From Minutocellus sp. GHC0000111 (Eukaryota), in the NCBI GenBank assembly GCA_977018835.1, contig OZ361261.1, forward strand, positions 806,001-870,000: a stretch of 64,000 bases of DNA, written 5' to 3'. Positions within the stretch are counted from its first letter, which is position 1. Every line of letters begins with the position of its first letter. The position numbers and the translations under genes were made by a program. Below are positions 2,179-12,997 of the stretch, in pieces. The notes below the pieces were generated by a model. The model was not told where the DNA came from and searched no databases. It saw nothing but the letters and a program-made list of their open reading frames with translations.

Positions 2179-2667
2179 GAGGTGTCACAGAAAAGATGAC
2201 TGGATGACTTTACCGGTACTTGCGGAAGTGATAGATATAGCGCGAATGCAGTGGAGTACCGTAAAACCATTAAATAGGTGAATGCATTGCTCGTTGGTTA
2301 TTGCTTTGGAAAGAATTGATAATTGATTGTGCCAGTATTGTTCGAGCTATTGTTCGGCCTGTGGCACTTCGATGCTTCGATGCCCTATTGAAGTACGTAG
2401 AATGCCCCGTAACGGGACTAGGATTTCTCCCGTCCACCTCCCATCGAGAGCCACGGGGTGCCAGCCATCCCCAGCAGCAGCCGTTTCACACCTTACTCCA
2501 GTAGCGCACGGTCTGGTCGCCGAGTGCCTCGAAAAACAAGCCTTCTTGGTGTCACCGGACTGGCCCACGTACCTCGTCAACATCTGGCTGATAGCCACGC
2601 GCCTTGCCGAGCCTGAGATCCGCCGGGCACACGAGACGGCAACTGAGTTGGACCTGAGCAGTGCACT

Positions 2668-3597
2668 GTGCCGACTACCACGGGCAGACGGAGGCGTCGT
2701 GGTTCAACAGTGTCGGGGGCGAAGGTGTCCGGAGGCATCGGTAGCAGCAGCGCGGCAACACCATTGCATTTGGCCCCAGCTCTGCCGGCTCACGCAGTGC
2801 ATCCTCCACTGCCAGGCCGACCGAAAAGAAAGACGGCGCATCGCGGCCAGAGAGAGGGCAGACCTCTAGAGCCGACACCGTACGCTTGCATAGGTTCACG
2901 GGGGAGCGAGCTTCCACCAACGCTGCCGCTCACTCATTTCGAGTGGGAGGTAAGGCCACTCTTCTGCCCACGTGACGCACACGACCGAACCGAGCGGGCT
3001 GGCGTCAGTGTGGCATTGGAGCGAGGAGATCTCATCGGCCCTTTCGCCCTGATCACCCAGTTCCCGCTGGATTCGCCGTACCCGTTCCAGAGACGGCAGC
3101 ACCTACGACCGGACCAACTCACTGAAGCTACTATCAACTGGGACAGTGGATTCGAGAGCCTCACCAGCGCTCGACTCCGACACACTCGGCCTGACAGCAA
3201 TCCTCTTGGACACCGAGTGGAGGTCAACCCGCACGAACACTGGGGAAGGCTGGCAGACCTAACGGCGTCCCCCTCACACCGCTGGGTGGGCACCCACCAT
3301 CGAGTCTGTCCGAGGTGGCTAGACGATGCGGCCGATCCAAATCGCTGGGAGGGTGCCCACTGCCGCGTCTGGCCAAGAGCATCAATTCACCGGCGCCCCG
3401 ACGATCTCGAGGCACCTGTCCGCCTGCGAGATGTCACCGCCGATATTTTGGTGTCAGAGCCACCGCGTCAGGCATTCAACATCCTTCTATCCGCCTTTGG
3501 AGAGCCCGACATCGCCGACCGCATCCTCACCCTCACGGCCGATCTGAACCACATCCAGCGCCGAGAGGACCGACGCCGAAGGCGACAGGCAAGGTGA
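2668..3597 (+). CDS. Upstream ORF of unknown function, probably part of the element
   Basis: 309-codon open frame ending 16 nt before the gag ATG (3614); same high-GC composition; starts at GTG. Confidence 0.4.
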   Translation: MPTTTGRRRRRGSTVSGAKVSGGIGSSSAATPLHLAPALPAHAVHPPLPGRPKRKTAHRGQREGRPLEPTPYACIGSRGSELPPTLPLTHFEWEVRPLFCPRDAHDRTERAGVSVALERGDLIGPFALITQFPLDSPYPFQRRQHLRPDQLTEATINWDSGFESLTSARLRHTRPDSNPLGHRVEVNPHEHWGRLADLTASPSHRWVGTHHRVCPRWLDDAADPNRWEGAHCRVWPRASIHRRPDDLEAPVRLRDVTADILVSEPPRQAFNILLSAFGEPDIADRILTLTADLNHIQRREDRRRRRQAR

Positions 3598-3613
3598 TCG
3601 AGCATTGATCACC

Positions 3614-5665
3614 ATGGCTTCATCTTTCAACACCTGGAAGTCAGTCCTACTGGCACAAGAAACACCGGCCGGGGCCGACGCCGCCGTAGCTCGAGATTTC
3701 CAGAGATTCCTCGCCGACAACGTCTGTGAAACCGACCCCACGGCCGCTGTGGTCCAGAGCCATGCCCGAGCGATCCAGCAGCAAATCCGCGACGCCGAGG
3801 GTTTGTCCATGCTGGCCCACCATCCAGAAGGGAAAGTCGTGGTGATTCACCATGCCGTGGCTCAGGGAGGCACCACCATGCAGCCCGACCTCAGGTTGGG
3901 TGGGCTCCTCGGGATCGACGATGTAGCCCCGGCAATGTCGTTGGCCCAACCTAGTTTCTTGCGGCACAAGGAGGTCCTAGCCCCATCGGTGGAAGCCATG
4001 CTGGGGGCACCATCAGAAGCCGCCCTAACCGGTCTCACCCAGGAAGGCTCCAACACCCGCCACCGGAGTGCCTCCACGAAGTTTAAGTCCCTTGTGCTGC
4101 TGCCACCTTCGATTCTGCAGAGTGTTCTGGAAGAGCACGAGGCATCGCCTTGGGCCATCCTGTCCGCCATCAAACGTCGGCTGGATGAGGACGCCGGCAG
4201 CGACGACGCATCAGACAGCAGTGACGACGAGGGTCATGGCGCAGCAGGTCTTCGCTCCAATGAGGCTGTTCAACACGTCGTCAAGTGGCTGTGGTTCGTC
4301 GCCACGTCCGAGCAAGGTGACGTCCCGGCCGTCAGCTTGCACCCAACGACGGACCCGGCTCTCAAGACATGCGCCCGTGAGATGCACGCTCTGCACATCA
4401 CTGGCGCCAGAGGCGACGGACCACCAGCCGGTGGCGCCCCGACCGACTCTGCAGTTGCTGCCGCGGCCAACGCCATGACTAGGGCCGCGTCCGAAGCATC
4501 CTCCCTCACCGGCGCAGTCATGGCCTACACTGACAAGGTCGACAAGAAGCACTCGATGAATGGCGCCATCCTCAAGGCCTGTGCCGCTTTCTGCCGGGTC
4601 TCGACCGAGCATGACGATGATGTAGCAGCGATCGACTCGAATCTTCCCGAAGGATTGAAAGCACTGCTGGAAGAGTCAAACCTCACGCAAGCAGCCGTCG
4701 GCCTCGAGCTGCATGTAAAGGGCAAGACCGGAGTCAGGACATCTCTCCAGGGCCTCACCACTTACGTCCGCCTCTTTGGCTTCGGGAAGAGCGACAAGAA
4801 AATCTACGATGGCTTCTCTGTCTTCGCCTTTAGCCCGGCAAACTCCAGCAGCAGCAATGCGCCCCTGTGCCTCGCCGCCTCTCAAAAGAAAGGATGCACC
4901 TCGACTCAGGTGAAGGCTCTTCTGAAGCAGAACTGCCGGTCCCCAACCGAGCACGACGGTGCCAAACGTCACATCTCGGCCTTCGGCGCTGGCATTTCCT
5001 TCCTTGCCGGAGAGGATTCCGAGCCCGCTCGCTACGTCGCCAGGGTCCTCAGTCACATGAAGACACACGAGGACCAGTGCCGCGACATCGCCGAGAGCCA
5101 TGGCGAGAAGTTCTGGCTGGCGATGTTCCACAACATCGACGCCTCCATCCATGCATTCTGGAAAGCTTGTCTCCGTTCCCCCGACGACGCCGGCAACGAC
5201 CTCTCTTGCTTCTCAATGGCCGACGAGTCCAAAAAGACAATGAAGACTCAGAATCCTTTCGTCTACCCCAGCCACATCAAGCTCGTCCAATCGGCCGACG
5301 CTCCCACCCCTTCCTCGGATTCCGACTCCGACAAATCAGAGCCAAGAACCAGTCCGAAAAAGAAGCAAAAGACGGGCGGCGCCAGCGGCAGAGCCCACCA
5401 GTGCGAACACTTCGTCACGTTCGACATCAACCCCGGCAACTTTGCAAAACGGCATGGCAAGAAATCCGAGCCCTGTACAGACCTGAAATTAATGGCTGTA
5501 AATTCTGCCCTCCATTCATCCTGACAGGCAGGTGTCTGCGGCGCCGGATCCTCGTGTAAGCTCAAGAAGTCGCATGTCAAGAGGCCTCTTAAGGCATCGG
5601 AGAGAGGACCCGTCGAGCAGCACGTCGAGAAATGCGATCGGAAAAACGAGGAGGCGGAGGAATGA
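3614..5665 (+). pseudogene. Gag-like ORF1 of the YR retrotransposon; frameshifted at the C-terminal Cys/His knuckle
   Basis: Long ORF 3614-5524 upstream of pol; fragments NGCKFCPPFILTGRC and SSCKLKKSH continue in shifted frames. Confidence 0.7.
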
Positions 5666-6260
5666 CGGATCGGGTGGGCACGGAGGCGTGGCCCACCCTC
5701 GGAGGATGCTGGAGAAACATCTCGGCCAGCCGGCCGAGCTCGTCCCTCCAAGCGCCGTCGAGTGCAGCCAGATGCGTCGGCGTCGATCCGCCCCGGTGGC
5801 TCCAGCCGCCCAAGGTTGTCCGGCACCCCAAAGTCCGGCGTGTGCGGTCGCAACGACATCAGCAACCAATCCAGGCTCTCCGGTGCCCCTAACACCGGAG
5901 CAGAAGGCCGAGGCGTTAGCAGTGACCTTCGGTCGGGTCCTGGTCCCCCTAACACCAGCGGTGATGCCTGCGCCGACAACAGCATCTCAGGCTCTGGCTC
6001 CAGCACCACTAACGCTGGCGGTGCGGAAGCCACCGACAACCTCTTCGACCGGCTAGGCCAGCGAGAGAAGGATCTCCTAGGCAAGCAGCCCCAACCCGAA
6101 GCACAGTCTCCCTCTGGTTCCCCTACGCACAGCAAGGAAGCAGAACCGATGCGCCAAAATGGCAAGTGAGACCAACAGGTGAAGAAACACCTGCAACAAA
6201 CGGGGCAGCCCAGCGCCCACCACGGTCGGACAGACCCGTGCATGCTCGTGAACGTGCAGC

Positions 6261-8861
6261 ATGCACATGTCTCACCTTTTTCTCGCCTTGTGCAACTCCA
6301 CGTGGGAACTAGAGCCCATCTTCGATGTTTCCACCTTGGTGCAGTGCGTCCGACGAGCAGTCGAGTCCCCGTCGGCCACACCGAAGCCCACGGAGTTCAG
6401 ATTTGAGCTCTTGACGGAGGCCGCCGCTCACAATTGGTCGGTCCTCAAGAAATGCGATCGTTCTCTGAGCAGGGCACTCGAGGCGCAGGGCGGGTCGCCA
6501 CTCCAACCGGGATCGGAGTTCAGAGACCTGAGTCTTCTGGAGCCGATTCTTGGCCGGCACCCGCTGTGGCCCCGCTTCCGCTCCACCATTCTCGACAGTG
6601 GATCCGACTGGGCCCTCGATCCGGTGAGCGACGAAAGCAGACTGGACAGCGTGATAAAGAACATCGGCCGAGGCAACCACAAATCGGCCAGGGACAGGCC
6701 GGAGGTGCTCAAGGACCAAGTTCTCGACGACGTGACCCGCGATTTCGCCCTCCCTCTGCCAGCAAAGGTCGCGCCCCTCATTCCTGGAGCGGAGGTGGCC
6801 CCGATGGGTTTGGCAGCACAGAACACGATCAGCGAGGCTGGCGAGATCATGCCCAAGGACCGCCTGACTCACGACCAATCCTTCGAGATCGGCACCGCAC
6901 GGTCCGTCAACAACAGAGCACGCATGGAGGACCACCAGCCAGTGGTGTTCGGCCATGCCCTCCGGCGAGTGATCCACTACATCGCAGACGCCCGTCACAA
7001 GCATCCCCGTGCTCCCATCCTCCTGCAGAAGGTCGATTTCAAGGCTGCGTGTCGCCGGGCCCACTTGGCTCCCAGCACGGCCGTCAAAACGATCACCACC
7101 CTGGATGGCATTGCCCTCATGTCCCTCCGGCTGACTTTCGGCGGCCGCCCTTGCCCGAGCGAATGGTGCAACATGTCCGAATCGGCGGCCGACCTGGCCA
7201 GGGCCCTCCTGCAATGCTCGGACTGGGACCCGTCAGAGCTCCACAGCCCCCAGCAGAAGCACTTGGGTCGCCCCAAGGTGGAGGGCGACGATGTGCCGTT
7301 CGCGCCGGCCCTGGACATGATCGCAACCCTTCCCGACAACAAGGATGGCATCGTCGAGCCGCACATCGATGACCTCATCGCCGCAGCCCCTGACCTGGGC
7401 GACAACAAGGATCGGATGTCCGCTGCCACCCTCCTCGCCATCCACGCACTTGGCCGACCGGCATCCGACAGAGAGCCACTGCCCAGAGATGACCTTGCCT
7501 CCATCAAGAAGCTGCTGCTCGCCGAGGGGACGCCTTCCGAAGTGCTGTGTCTCTTGGGGTGGGATGCTGATGCCCGGCGGCTCCTGTTGAGGCTCCCTTG
7601 GAGCAAGCACCTGGCCTGGCGCGATGACATGCTTCGGCTCCTCAGAGCCCGCGGCGCCACCAGATCAGAGCTGGACACCTTGGTCGGAAGGCTAAACCAC
7701 GTCGGACACATCATTCCAGCCGCACGACACTTCCTCAGCCGCCTTCGGGATCGGCTCTGGAAGGCCCGCCGCCACGGCCGCCAACGGTTCGACTCTGAGG
7801 ATGCAGAAGACCTCAACCTGTGGCTCCGCTTCCTCCGAAGGGCCGCCGATGGCATGAGCATGAACCTCCTCACGCACCGTTGCCCCACCCATGAGCACAT
7901 AAGTGACGCCTGCGAGCACGGCATCGGCGGATGGTCCTCATCCGGCAGAGCGTGGAGACTTGCCCTCCCCGAGGAGCTGTGGGGCCGGTTCACCCTCAAT
8001 TGCCTGGAACTCCTCGCCGCCGTCATCGGCCCATGGATCGACCACATCGAGGGCAACCTACCAACCCTCTCCTGCGTGCTGTCGGGGACCGACAGCACCA
8101 CGGCCGAGGGATGGCTCAGGAAGTCGAACTTCGTGTCTCACGGCGAGAAGGATGCCGACGTAGCGGTCAAGCTGGCCACGGCGCGGAAACTAGCCGACAT
8201 GCTCATCGAGACCAACACCATGCTGTGCTCACAGTGGTTCCAGGGGAAGCGCAATCCGGAGGCCGACTCTCTTTCTCGTGGTGCCGATCTCTCTGATGCT
8301 GACCTCACGAAATTGCTTCTGTCATCTCCCGAATGTCAGCTTCACTCAAATTTCAGGATTGCACCACTGCCCAACGAGATTGCTTCCTGGATTGTCTCGC
8401 AGGCGCGGACGCTGCCCGTCAGGAAGCAGTTACAACGGCCACTGCCGAGAAGCACGCTCTCGCGTGGAGCCGCTGGACTGAGTTCCTGCTGCAGCTCATC
8501 GGGACCGGGGACGACGTCTTCCTCGACAAGGTGTCACCCCGAGACCGAACAGTCATTCTCGGCGCCTTTGCCCACGCCGTCCGACAGGCCAGCTTTTCGG
8601 GGCCAAAATTTTCGCGACTGGCTGCGTCGACAGTCCGAGACGCCGTCTCACATGCATGCTCGTCCTTCCGGCACAACCAGCGCAGCAGGGACCCAGGGAA
8701 AGACGACATCGGCCAGCCTTCATTCCTTCTACAGCGGCAGTTCCGAGGATGCAGCCAGTCCGACCCGGCCGAGCGGCCGGAGAAGGCGATCACCTGCCGG
8801 CTCCTCCGAGAGATCGCCTCCGTCAGGGAAACGGAAGAGGACCGTGCAGTCGGGCAACTAG
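6261..8861 (+). pseudogene. Reverse transcriptase/RNase H of DIRS/Ngaro type, catalytically mutated
   Basis: Motifs KDRLTHDQS, KVDFKAAcRR, LRLTFGGRPCP, hIDD in place of YxDD, LLGW; RNase H motifs SDAC..GIGG, NCLEL, TDSTTAEGW, NPEADSLSR. Confidence 0.9.
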
Positions 8862-9560
8862 CCGTCGGCGCGCCTTCTTCTTCGCGATGAGGTCTTGCGA
8901 ACACTCCAGAGTCAGCGGTGAGCGCAGGACCAAGCTGCTGCTCCGCCTCCGCAACATCCAGTTCTGCCGCGGCCGACGGCGCATGTGTCACAACGACCGG
9001 TCCCTCTTCTCAGCAGACTCTGTCTCCGTCACCTTTGAGTTCCAGAAGAACGACGAGCGTGACGTCACGATTGCGCAACACTGCACCCCCACGACGCCAC
9101 CCTCTGCCCAGTTCGAGCTTGGGCTGCCCTGGTGAAACGAGTCCTAGGGTGCCCTAGCACCAACAGCGACACGCCGGTAAATGCCTTCGTGGTCAACGGC
9201 GTGTTAAAACACATTCCTGCCACCCGAACAGTTGACAAGATCCGAGCGTCGGCCACAGTGATTGGAGAGGACGTCCTCCTGGGCTGCCATCATCCCCCTC
9301 TGAATTTGGATCACACTCCATTCGCAGCGGAGCAGCAATGGCAATGTGTCTAAATGATGTTCCCACGTACACAATCATGCTGGTAGGGCGGTGGTCCAGT
9401 GACGCCTTCCTCAAGTACATCCGTCGCCAGGTCCAAGAATTTACATCCGGAGTCTCCACACGCATGATCCAACGAGGTTCCTTCTTCAACCACCAACGTG
9501 CCCCACGCACACTCGACGAGCCATCGCGAAGACCCAAGGACCCCAAATTGCCGCCAATCC
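8333..9560 (+). pseudogene. Tyrosine recombinase of the element, several frameshifts; end approximate
   Basis: AFFFAMRSCE (catalytic R), FEFQKND, HSIRSGAAMA (HxxR at 9314), GRWSSDAFLKYIR (W and catalytic Y); overlaps 3' end of RT ORF in another frame. Confidence 0.88.
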
Positions 9561-9706
9561 TTCGCCGGCATCAACAGTGTTGGCCGAAATGCCGGCTTCG
9601 GGACTCCAATGCCCCCCTTCGCCCTGTTCACCTAAGCACGACACACATCATTGGCCGATCTGTGCTGCTACGGAAAAAGGAGGAGGGGGGGAGAGGGACC
9701 TCACTC

Positions 9707-9834
9707 TCTAAGAAGTTTCATTTACCGCCAATGCCAGCTCCAGTTCACGTAGTTAAACTGCATTTCATGTTCTACTAAGTTGCATAGAGTTGGGAGAATC
9801 AGCGGAGGGAGGCACTGTGTTCGATGTGTCATCG
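9707..9834 (+). repeat. Terminal direct repeat copy 1 (B1-like)
   Basis: tctaagaagtttcatttacc...gggaggcactgtgttcgatgtgtcatcg is nearly identical to 10077-10195. Confidence 0.92.
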
Positions 9835-10076
9835 TTGTGGGTGCCGCACGGTGGGCATGAGCTGGCGACGGTGGTTAGCAGCAGGCACTAAAACTGCATT
9901 CCTGTAGTGCCCAGTTTTTCTGCTGACCACCACCTTCGCCTCCTCTCGTCTCAACTGACCAAGCCACAACCATCTGCGATTGCTGCCGTTGCAATTGCTA
10001 AGTCAGCTTACAGTGCCGGCTCCCAGAGCCTGTCTCTCTCTCTCTCAGTAGTTAGTTTTAAATTCCCTCAAACCCG

Positions 10077-10195
10077 TCTAAGAAGTTTCATTTACCCCGC
10101 CGCCTTCACGTAGTTAAACTGCATTTCATGTTCTACTAAGTTGCATAGAGTTGGGAGAATCAGCGGAGGGAGGTGCTGTGTTCGATGTATCATCG
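10077..10195 (+). repeat. Terminal direct repeat copy 2 (B2-like), marks the element's 3' end
   Basis: tctaagaagtttcatttacc...gggaggtgctgtgttcgatgtatcatcg. Confidence 0.92.
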
Positions 10196-10508
10196 CTCGG
10201 ACATCTCGGACGGCAAGGAGCCAAAGTTGCTAGGCTGGGATCTGACCCGCCGCCGCCTCGATGCGCCAGTGGCCGGAGCAGTAACGCGGACAGGCAGCGA
10301 GTGCGTAGTCGAGGAGCACGAAGCGTAGCACAGTGTGTTCGTTGCGTTTTTGCATCACAAGCAAGAAAGTCAGGCAAACCGAACGAACTATCGGGTCGGC
10401 CTATGCCTGCAGATCGATCCCTCGGCCCCTTCCGCCGGTTGCTGACAGAGACCATACCAGAGACTCACTCGGGACCGCTACCGCCTTCCGCCACAGACGG
10501 ACGACACG

Positions 10509-12997
10509 ATGCTCATCGGCGACGACTCGGCCAACGAGGACCCGCGGCTGTCCAGCGCGGCCAGTCTCCTCCGCCTCGGTCATTTGGGTGCGACCTTTGG
10601 ACCCACCTACACGCACCAGTGCTTCGACGACGAGCGCGTTCGTGGATTTCAGCCGTACGACGACGCCATTCGAGAGACGGAGCGGCGGTACGCCACGTCT
10701 CCCCTGGCGCTGATGAATGATGTCAATGCTGGTGCTGGAGCTGGTCGGTTGGCCGTGTCGCGCCAGGCCAGCAAAGGACTGCGCGAATCGCTGGTCAGGT
10801 CTCACGATCTGCCTCACAAGTCCTTCCAGCATCACGAGACGGCGACGCATCGACTGTCGCTGGAGGTCGTGCTGGCTCCCAGCTGTCAATCCTGTGCGGT
10901 GATCATTCGAACGGAGGCCAAGAAGAGGGATCGGGCGGGAAGTACCGCCAGCGAGGCTTCGTTGGTGTCGGCGTCGTCGGCCTCCTCATCATCGGTCCCA
11001 TCGTCCAGATCGGTGTCACCGTATTTCGATCTGCAGGTCCAGCCGACCAATGATAATACTGCTGCTGCTGCTGCTGCTGCTGCTAGTGGTGGTGGTGGCG
11101 GTGGTGCTGGAGGTCGTGGTGGCAAGCGACGTCGGGTGGGGCGCAATGACAGTGACTGTGAGAACAATGATCGCAAGTCACCCCCTCTGGCCGTTGGTGC
11201 TGCACCGATGAGCGTATTGGAGCAGCTGGACAGCATTGCCGACGGTAATGGTATCGGTACCAACGCCAACAATGCTACTACTGCTGGTCCCAAGATTGTG
11301 TTCAGCAGCAAGAGTACCACCGGCATCCCCCTCGCGCCCGGTGCCAATACCATGGTCGTCCATCCCCTCTCCACGTACGCTGCCGCCAACAGCACTGGTG
11401 GTGGTGGCCGTGCCGGCAGGACGCGCCGTCGCCGGATGGAGATCGACGAGGTGCTGGAGAGGATCAGCCGGACCCTCCCTCCCGTGGTTCGGTGCGATCA
11501 CATTCGTACCGACGAGTTGGGGGGTGGTGATGATGATAGTGGCGGCGGTAGTGCAGGATTGCAACTGCCATTGGTCCAGGTGGGAGGTGCAACCATCGAT
11601 GAGGTACGTGGGGCCTACCTATCGCACCCACTTGGTACCGTGCTCAAGAAATATCAGCGACCCATTCGCAATGCCAATGCCACACTCACGTCATCGGCCA
11701 AGATCAATGACAACGAGTCGATGGGAGACTTTGTCCTGTGTCTGGCCGATGGGAGAGATGAGGGTGTTGCTGCATACCACAATCGCGTGCAGAGATTGGC
11801 CCTCTGGTACATCGAGAACGACAGCGAGGTCGATCTAGCATCGACCGACAGCGGCGGGTATTGGAAGGTCCTCTACGTGTTCCGCAGGCATAAAGTCGCC
11901 GGTGCTGGCGATGATAACCATGGTGATGACGCCAAAATGCCTTTGGTGGCTGCTGAAGAGACTGAGGATGGAAAAGATAGTGACGACGTCAAGCCTGCAG
12001 CCAGTAGCAGTAGCGATCAGACATCGCACAGGCCATCTCATCAGTCATCTCCCTTGGTCAAGCGTGCCGTCAAATCCTTTTACTCGACGTGCGATAGTCT
12101 CGTGTCGTTGTTCTCTGGACGCCATAATCAAGGCAGTGATAATAGTCGCAGCGCGTTCGAGGAGAGGGTGAATGCAGAGCCACTCGATCTACCTCTGCCA
12201 TCATCGCAGTCCTTAGATAGGACCATTGACGACGGCTATGGTGATGACGAGGACTCTTCGTCGAACACAGTCAAGTACGAGTACTCCCTCGTTGGTTTAT
12301 GACGCTGTTTCACTGCTATTCTCAGTACAAGAAGCCATCTGCTGGGACCATATGCCGCATGTGTCAGGCTGTAGTCCTTCCCTCGTTCCAGCGCGCCGGT
12401 CATGGGAAAATGATGATGATTGGCGCTCACGAGGTGGCAAAGGGCAGATACGCGGATATGCTCCCGCCATCTATTGGGCAGAGGGGTGACATCGTTGAGG
12501 TCGATGTGGAAGATCCGGCGATTGAATTTACCGCTCTGAGAGATCGAGTTGACTACGAGATGGTGAAAGATGCCATCGCTAGTGACCCTCGGTCGGTACT
12601 TGGGGTCAACGTGGCCGACGTGGCCGTTTCTCAAGAGGATTACTACCTTCCCCTCAGTGGACAAGAGCTGGTCGAGGCATCCTCAATTCTCAAGATCACA
12701 CCGGATCAAGTCCAAATTGCTCTCGAGTTGTACAAACGCAATGCGTTGGATGACGAAATTTCGCATCAAATGAGAGAAAAGAAGAAGAAACCCGCCACCA
12801 AGAGGCAGGCTGTTGCCAAGCTGGAGGGTATGTACGAATCTATGGTCAAGAAGCGTCTGTCGAAGGTGTACCGGGAGGATATCAGTGGTTGCGGTGGTGG
12901 AAAGGCTGAGAAGGATGCCGTACTTGATTATCTATATGATGAAACTATGGCTCACTATCGCTCGATCTTGGGGGAAAGAAAGAGCGCTCGCAGTTAG
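10509..12997 (+). pseudogene. HAT1: HAT1-like histone acetyltransferase with a frameshift at ~12296-12299
   Basis: PTYTHQCF..E.VRGF, YHNRVQRLALWYIE, YWKVLYVF, then MTLFH...RMCQAVVLPSFQRAGHG and VEDPAIEFTALRD in another frame; junction ggtttatgacg. Confidence 0.75.

Follow-up and report, generated by a model that had tools for sequence, protein, structure and literature searches.

Our study concerns a window of 64,000 nucleotides, by which we mean the whole stretch of DNA that was analysed, and a retrotransposon copy of 7.8 kb that lies in it among host genes. The copy carries two long open reading frames (ORF1 and ORF2), the remnant of a tyrosine recombinase gene and a tail in which a direct repeat stands on either side of a further segment (Table 1). 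The rest of the window consists of host genes only (P450, MatE, MFS, PPR, WD40, DnaJ and others) with long intact ORFs; for a homoserine dehydrogenase encoded there the nearest eukaryotic match is a diatom-rich cluster. Contigs from four runs of the organism's own DNA (X1-X4) match the right-hand flank from 10202 onward, and ahead of that flank they have a loose end. Its first 18 letters are those of window positions 2418-2435, and 12 further letters are found nowhere in the window; the inserted segment is absent from this other allele. At 10286-10368 the flank, too, has two alleles, which differ at 6 of 83 nt; this, together with the allele free of the insertion, indicates that the organism is highly heterozygous.

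Table 1. Parts of the retrotransposon copy and its variable sites, in window coordinates.
Feature	Position	Strand	Remarks
Inserted segment (retrotransposon copy)	2436..10201	+	relative to insertion-free allele in the organism's own DNA runs
ORF1, 658 aa	3548..5524	+	no family match; in the gag position of Ngaro elements, putative function by position only
ORF2, 869 aa, RT and RNase H region	6252..8861	+	by predicted fold; YXDD tyrosine changed to His at codon 7362
Tyrosine recombinase remnant	8303..9706	+	interrupted by in-frame stops or frame changes
Polymorphic TA site, GTAT type	9578..9579		TG in window copy; CA and TA in family
Polymorphic TA site, TTAT type	9649..9650		CA, TA and TG all present in family
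Repeat B1, internal copy of split direct repeat	9707..9834	+	repeat finder and self-blastn
Site 1 in B1, CA	9813..9814		GTAC-type site, likely hit on lower strand
Site 2 in B1, G (GTGT)	9828		likely derived from GTAT; run unitigs break at 9828
Repeat A2	9835..10076	+	without A1 partner in window copy
GTAC site in A2	10015		G in window copy, A in 96-100% of family depth; rare A>G in window copy
Repeat B2, terminal copy	10077..10195	+	repeat finder and self-blastn
Indel region, B2 side	10097..10104		uncommon in family
Site 1 in B2, TG	10174..10175		likely hit on upper strand
Site 2 in B2, A (GTAT)	10189		one of only 8 RTAY remaining in 7.8-kb element

In the order of its parts, with a tyrosine recombinase ORF downstream of the one for RT and RNase H, and a B1-A2-B2 tail, the copy resembles the Ngaro elements of the DIRS order, for which two published accounts give the repeat order A1-...-B1-A2-B2 (PMC8547959, PMC9210276). 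The direct repeats of the window are the B1 and B2 of a Ngaro-type tyrosine-recombinase retrotransposon. A related locus (L035) shows the full arrangement A1-[ORFs]-B1-A2-B2, with A1 at its start and B1-A2-B2 at its end. Unlike Ngaro elements, the window copy is without A1 and its recombinase ORF is broken. Neither blastn nor local alignment found A1 in the window copy (best score 40, against 37.9 +/- 5.1 for shuffled sequence); in another genomic copy, seen in the contigs of the DNA runs among the matches listed, an unrelated flank is followed by A. The recombinase frame of the window copy holds 3 stops. This third gene is broken by frame changes besides the stops, its frame being lost and then regained at 8862-9235, and plausible recombinase text stands in the frame of 8482-9135.

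A further difference from Ngaro elements is that the reverse transcriptase and recombinase of this clade escape the sequence profiles of Pfam and PDB, and both were recognisable by predicted fold only. Pfam returned nothing for ORF1, ORF2 or the recombinase pieces, even at E = 10 for the three ORFs that were re-scanned, and nothing at E <= 0.01 for seven relatives of 40-64% identity; in the related locus L035 its Phage_integrase profile reached an E of only 0.073. Among PDB sequence profiles, a profile of 25 family members found none for the RT, and the recombinase gave chance GFP matches only. As to a methyltransferase, the ORFs hold no Pfam domain of any kind, although Pfam is blind to the whole clade. 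The AlphaFold model of ORF2 (pLDDT 78.3) is matched in Foldseek by the reverse transcriptases of MMLV, CaMV, Ty3 and foamy virus at the top (E 3e-8 to 4e-7, best 3.3e-8), and RT chains including that of HIV account for 64 matches at E<=1e-3. For the recombinase, the ORF3 of a relative was modelled (pLDDT 71.9), and its fold resembles those of Cre (E 4.7e-7), XerH and integron integrase. The recombinase block H-x-x-R ... GRW ... Y is present in the window (HSIRSG...GRWSSDAFLKY) and is common to 38 ORFs of 80 related loci.

Among 7,994 scored candidates ORF2 has 290 relatives at E <= 1e-3, including copies of 94-97% identity on megabase contigs. This RT/RNase H clade (290 matches; proteins P0001-P0120) and its recombinase partner occur widely in metagenomes from the sea and from fresh water, on contigs of 3-8 kb. 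At least 12 of 80 related metagenome contigs (L002, L004, L008, L011, L017, L018, L024, L029, L034, L042, L064 and L067) start and finish with the same 64-306 nt and so close on themselves, with a unit of about 6.1-7.9 kb. Assemblers have probably merged A1 with A2 and B1 with B2 into a circle in such contigs, the alternative being circular DNA forms. The B1/B2 pairs of the 80 metagenome loci were considered as a test of the repeat differences described below and proved unusable, the repeats having collapsed in assembly; in related metagenome loci at about 40% protein identity the repeats are unrelated to the B repeats of the window. Twelve field runs from 2015-2024 (X5-X16), comprising marine and sponge-associated metatranscriptomes and metagenomes, contain 18-44% of the sampled words of 9000-11000, which indicates near-identical DNA or RNA of the element or the organism in field samples.

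The repeat finder and self-blastn agree on the direct repeats, which are 128 nt (B1) and 119 nt (B2) long and 88.3% identical over 128 columns. No third similar copy of the repeat exists in the 64-kb window, where the next-best blastn match has E = 0.13. One indel region (9727-9743 against 10097-10104) separates the two copies. In the runs the bin over its B2 version (10089-10119) has a depth of 17-918, against 4,665-12,634 for the bin over its B1 version (9717-9747); since the B2 version is thus rare in the family and the B1 version common, B2 holds the derived form. The last 91 nt of the repeats (9744-9834 against 10105-10195) are gap-free and 97% identical, and the alignment agrees exactly with the preliminary description that, the indel region apart, they differ only at ggCActg in B1 against ggTGctg in B2 (site 1; 9813-14 and 10174-75) and at atgTGtc against atgTAtc (site 2; 9828 and 10189). 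Within this tail, 7 of the 91 possible single transitions touch the T or A of an RTAY, and of the 90 double transitions possible at adjacent bases 7 pass through an RTAY, which puts the chance that both loci suit RTAY at about 0.6%, provided that the motif was fixed beforehand.

The states of these sites in the family were read from k=31 contigs of the four DNA runs of the organism; they follow from unitig start coordinates, mismatch counts, depths and de Bruijn logic rather than from letters read out. The family is a high-copy one, for depth runs into the thousands on contigs of the element and is only about 100-390 on the single-copy flank. Among the matches listed, with B1 as the reference, three unitigs lie over site 1 in each run: one at 9783-9827 with 0 mismatches (CA; depth 2573, 1525, 1850 and 2887 in the four runs), one from 9784 with 1 mismatch (TA; 3143, 2068, 2000 and 3379) and one from 9784 with 2 mismatches (TG; 3121, 1821, 1945 and 3114). 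As the CA unitig starts one base earlier, C at 9813 has A as its sole successor; the two unitigs starting at 9784 have a common base other than C at 9813 and split at 9814, and thus represent TA and TG. The resulting shares among the matches listed are 28-32% for CA, 35-38% for TA and 33-35% for TG. The summed depth of the forms is no lower than that of the unbranched upstream B unitig, for which the three jointly account. In three of the four runs the unitigs over site 1 end at 9827, so that site 2, with G or A, is variable on several backgrounds; exceptions are the CA form of X2, which reaches 9834, and in X3 the forms TA and TG, which end a few bases earlier than 9827. Within 9500-10200 three further places, at 9578-79, 9649-50 and 10015, vary in the family in the same TA/TG/CA manner (Table 1). 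The GTAT sites are opposed to one another, 9578-79 being mostly CA while site 2 has TG and no CA, and the motif alone therefore cannot foretell which strand is hit. Exact-pattern scans for the B repeat gave 0 matches in metagenome, prokaryote-genome and viral collections, and a protein search with a 50-aa minus-strand ORF across B1 and A2, in which the states of site 1 would read Cys, Tyr, His or Arg, gave no candidate.

The preliminary description had derived the CA and TG of site 1 from a TA (RTAY) ancestor, and the contigs of the four runs, an indirect view of the other copies, bear this out, with CA, TA and TG at about a third each in the family and no CG consensus. It had also cautioned that the pair could come from methyl-CpG deamination, in which a CG at site 1 would have become CA in one repeat and TG in the other, with an unrelated transition at site 2. 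CA against TG is indeed the classic product pair of such decay. The family nevertheless offers no path through CG: CG is not on the main path at site 1 in any of the four runs, where, among the matches listed, C at 9813 is followed by A only and TA accounts for 35-38%. Moreover, the CpG observed/expected ratio (o/e) of the element is 0.91, like that of host DNA, the other CpGs of B lie within an unbranched unitig of 108-114 nt, and the outgroup polarity reported below runs from AT to GC. The caveat is thus largely refuted, and we find CpG decay hardly credible as the source of these differences.

Depletion of TpA sets the whole element apart from its surroundings. TpA o/e is 0.31 in the element, 0.24 in ORF1 and 0.12 in ORF2. 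When the window is cut into 2-kb bins, those within the element core (4001-10000) have values of 0.13-0.33 and all others 0.43-0.72, and a 500-nt profile agrees with this. The loss of TpA is restricted to the element, and host DNA is spared. Sorting the sites by context shows that in the core (3548-9706) RTAY is observed 3 times against 57 expected, TAY on one strand 24 times against 114, and YTAR 23 times against 57. In host DNA, RTAY, observed 609 times against 763 expected, is the commonest TA class, the counts being 880 against 1526 for one-strand TAY and 209 against 763 for YTAR. This graded loss, greatest where two strands carry the motif, less where one does and none where neither does, indicates that a single strand reading T-A-Y is the unit recognised; in RTAY, which is palindromic, both strands qualify as TAY. 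Across 62 related loci of at least 3 kb, RTAY o/e ranges from 0.35 to 0.95.

The first 1.1 kb of the insert (2436-3547) is far less depleted, with RTAY at 4 of 10 expected and a TpA o/e of 0.47. It shows no likeness to A2, and may be unique to the window copy.

The coding region of the family was surveyed by comparing the DNA of ORF2 with eight family proteins of 94-97% identity, from which single-base changes were inferred; the spectrum therefore covers the nonsynonymous changes that proteins reveal. There are 163 distinct differences, of which 95 have a unique one-step route and 28 of these 95 are transversions. Among 1389 possible unique nonsynonymous transitions 56 are seen, and they are concentrated in a pyrimidine context, with Y[A/G]Y at 36 of 274 and all other contexts at 20 of 1115 (p = 1e-13). 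The contrast is sharpest after T: T[A/G]Y has 16 of 65 against 40 of 1324 for the remainder, with T[A/G]C at 13 of 52, T[A/G]T at 3 of 13 and G[A/G]C at 0 of 194. A>G after C is seen as well (C[A/G]Y 20 of 209, for instance at 6825, 7017 and 7677) and creates CpG; such sites are perhaps hit by this activity too, as a second target of lower preference. The order of the base before A is thus T > C > A > G, while position -2 shows no purine preference (6 of 15 T[A/G]Y events). Swaps between Ala and Val occur at 23 of 175 codons of the GTA/GCA and GTG/GCG kinds against 2 of 266 of the GTC/GCC and GTT/GCT kinds, and as they depend in this way on the next base, the context is mutational rather than selective.

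Nine outgroup proteins gave polarity to 40 events, 29 of which run from AT to GC and 11 from GC to AT (p 9e-6 given 37% A+T); by context the ratio of AT>GC to GC>AT is 10:4 at T[A/G]N and 12:4 at C[A/G]N. This polarity agrees with the near erasure of RTAY from the element, and both support the motif that had been put forward from the repeat pair. The 29 AT>GC events divide on the coding strand into 14 A>G and 15 T>C, which fits the earlier claim of hits on opposite strands and argues against editing of the sense RNA alone. ADAR-type RNA editing is accordingly rejected. RIP is rejected as well, the element having a TpA/ApT ratio of 0.32, a (CpA+TpG)/(ApC+GpT) ratio of 1.30 and AT>GC polarity, which is the opposite chemistry. 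Selection against a GTAC-type restriction site was also discarded as unlikely, for the changes seen are confined to T>C and A>G in the central TA and spare the outer bases. In a four-gamete test, 88 of 221 site pairs carry all four gametes, which amounts to high homoplasy among the copies.

The effect of these changes on the protein is most visible in its tyrosines. At each of 5 positions where the outgroups conserve Tyr, no family copy has it; in 34 of 34 observations it is replaced, by Cys (11), His (17) or Trp (6). One of the five is the tyrosine of YXDD, where all 24 aligned relatives have Tyr or Phe and all 9 sampled family copies lack the tyrosine. Two of the five positions and three further codons are dimorphic for Cys and His or trimorphic for Cys, His and Tyr, the codon-level equivalents of TG, CA and TA. 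Two Tyr codons of the RTAY type have a single product, 7050 being Cys throughout (7/7) and 7896 His throughout (6/6); inheritance from an already mutated ancestor fits such uniformity better than independent 50:50 hits. The Tyr content of ORF2 has fallen to 0-0.27% in the family, whereas outgroups have 0.96-2.4% and host proteins 1.8-2.9%.

A pattern in which CA and TG are about equally frequent, TA stands alongside and CG never occurs is also what strand-specific miscalls would produce, if a modified base at TAY in silenced repeats led to A being called as G; the technology of X1-X4 and of the assembly is not on record. We regard such a sequencing artefact as very doubtful. The share of TA varies by site, from 96-100% at 10015 through about 36% at site 1 to none at the five Tyr codons, one high-depth unitig of X2 has CA at site 1 phased with TG at site 2, and the host genes of the window keep their ORFs intact. 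The closest published parallel, in Bigelowiella natans, was moreover obtained with Illumina sequencing (bioRxiv 10.64898/2026.01.13.699255).

The changes might instead arise during retrotransposition, through RT errors or the editing of RNA or single-stranded cDNA, and not in integrated DNA. DIRS-1 makes abundant single-stranded cDNA intermediates (PMC7192593), and where a site has the same product in every copy, copies that were already mutated may have served as templates for new ones. The balance of 14 to 15 between the strands would then require RNA and cDNA to be hit equally, the loss of the YXDD tyrosine from all sampled copies makes them poor sources of RT, and the B. natans signature is described as arising in a single-copy integrated region during clonal growth. 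On these grounds we consider an origin in retrotransposition improbable.

More standing belongs to the possibility that the same TpA process made the variants elsewhere than in the window copy, and that B1 and B2 were already unequal at insertion, either because another family member was the template on which the terminal repeat was rebuilt, by template switching or gene conversion, or because the two repeats are inherited separately. That the two repeats are equal at insertion is a model assumption for Ngaro elements, made by analogy with DIRS-1 (PMC7192593). The B copies of the family divide into rough thirds with CA, TA and TG, and site 2 is polymorphic as well, so that B1 and B2 were possibly unequal when they arrived. 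The two RTAY codons that have one product throughout the sampled copies point in the same direction, as does an insertion that is missing from the other allele and yet already almost without RTAY, and the four-gamete failures fit recombination too. Near-equal CA and TG at a palindromic site are, on the other hand, what independent hits on either strand predict, and the window copy has rare hits of its own, at 10015 (where G has 0-4% of the depth) and at 9578-79, where its TG is absent from the other contigs. We judge inequality at insertion rather unlikely on balance. It bears directly on the suggestion in the preliminary description that the mutation acted on integrated double-stranded DNA if the repeats were identical at insertion: strand symmetry does speak against editing restricted to sense RNA, whereas the pair does not place the hits after integration, and the difference between B1 and B2 may be inherited or recombinant rather than made in the window copy.

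For the repeat pair itself, we consider it probable that the three base differences between B1 and B2 lie at two RTAY sites whose ancestor was likely TA, and that they were produced by a process which likely changes A to G at 5'-T-A-Y-3' on either strand. In the model that we propose, the process would convert A to G in 5'-TAY of either strand, with less effect where C precedes the A and next to none where G does, a hit on one strand leaving TG and a hit on the other CA. A palindromic RTAY that has been hit once would presumably be a poor target from then on, and the absence of CG would follow from this. The analogy with B. natans, the strand symmetry and the homoplasy suggest that the agent would act on double-stranded, probably integrated DNA, and an adenine deaminase of the ADAT/TadA type is a candidate for it, as the authors of the B. 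natans study themselves suggest for theirs. Our wider proposal is a tentative one, to which we would give slightly less than an even chance: that a genome defence in this diatom-like alga deaminates the adenine of double-stranded integrated mobile DNA at 5'-TAY-3', chance deciding whether an RTAY becomes TG or CA, with CG never the outcome, and that it has erased nearly every RTAY and every conserved Tyr codon, the catalytic one of YXDD included, of the whole Ngaro family.

The one precedent that we found is the 2026 preprint on the chlorarachniophyte B. natans, which presents the process as a defence against invading DNA. It followed mutation-accumulation lines and found 231 new mutations in two viral regions integrated in the genome; 230 of these were A>G or T>C, each at a TpA, and Mettrop et al. 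suggest an ADAT2-like deaminase (bioRxiv 10.64898/2026.01.13.699255). Both systems have A:T>G:C changes at TpA that yield TpG or CpA according to the strand (there in integrated giant-virus and virophage DNA), are limited to foreign or mobile DNA, leave a depletion of TpA and are biased in the direction opposite to the usual GC>AT. Domains of reverse transcriptase are enriched among the TpA-depleted genes of B. natans, and the target in our window is an RT-bearing element. The hosts differ, B. natans belonging to Rhizaria and the organism of the window being a diatom-like stramenopile. There, viral inserts were caught in real time; here, a multicopy tyrosine-recombinase retrotransposon bears a fossil pattern only. 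The B. natans changes are almost exclusively A>G or T>C, whereas ours are enriched without being exclusive (AT>GC 29 against GC>AT 11, with the transversions noted above); old copies also carry ordinary mutations. Finally, the 3' pyrimidine rule, the double target RTAY and the weaker hits after C are features of our element, while the main text of the preprint is without discussion of flanking bases and does not contain the words 'flank', 'context' or 'trinucleotide', and A>G after C (20 of 209 at C[A/G]Y, 12:4 at C[A/G]N) lies outside the published TpA-only rule.

The pattern also resembles two better-known processes in part. RIP in ascomycete fungi is likewise a dinucleotide-specific transition hypermutation that inactivates repeated mobile DNA on both strands; it consists of C>T at CpA and raises TpA. 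The fossils of ADAR-edited retroelements in animals share with our element the change A>G, a preference for 5' U or T and a disfavour of 5' G. RNA editing puts A>G on the sense strand only, whereas here both strands are hit equally. ADAR prefers a 3' G; in our element the favoured 3' base is C or T, and the best survival is that of YTAR, a class to which TAG belongs.

Literature searches, judged by the titles and opening lines of abstracts, listed no report of TpA hypermutation in diatoms. What is new here is the TpA footprint in another supergroup, on a tyrosine-recombinase retrotransposon and with a readable flank rule. The differences between the end repeats are not a neutral clock, and dating such insertions by repeat divergence would mislead. 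Elements that are hit lose tyrosine codons and their detectability by sequence profiles. The flank rule (T > C > A > G before A, C or T after it, RTAY as a double target and no CG) provides a fingerprint against which ADAT2/TadA-like candidates can be tested. If our reading is true, the immune principle of Bigelowiella would extend to another supergroup of eukaryotes, where the sequence rule of its enzyme can be read, and a process that leaves its footprint also on the retrotransposons of a diatom-like stramenopile would be widespread and no mere curiosity.
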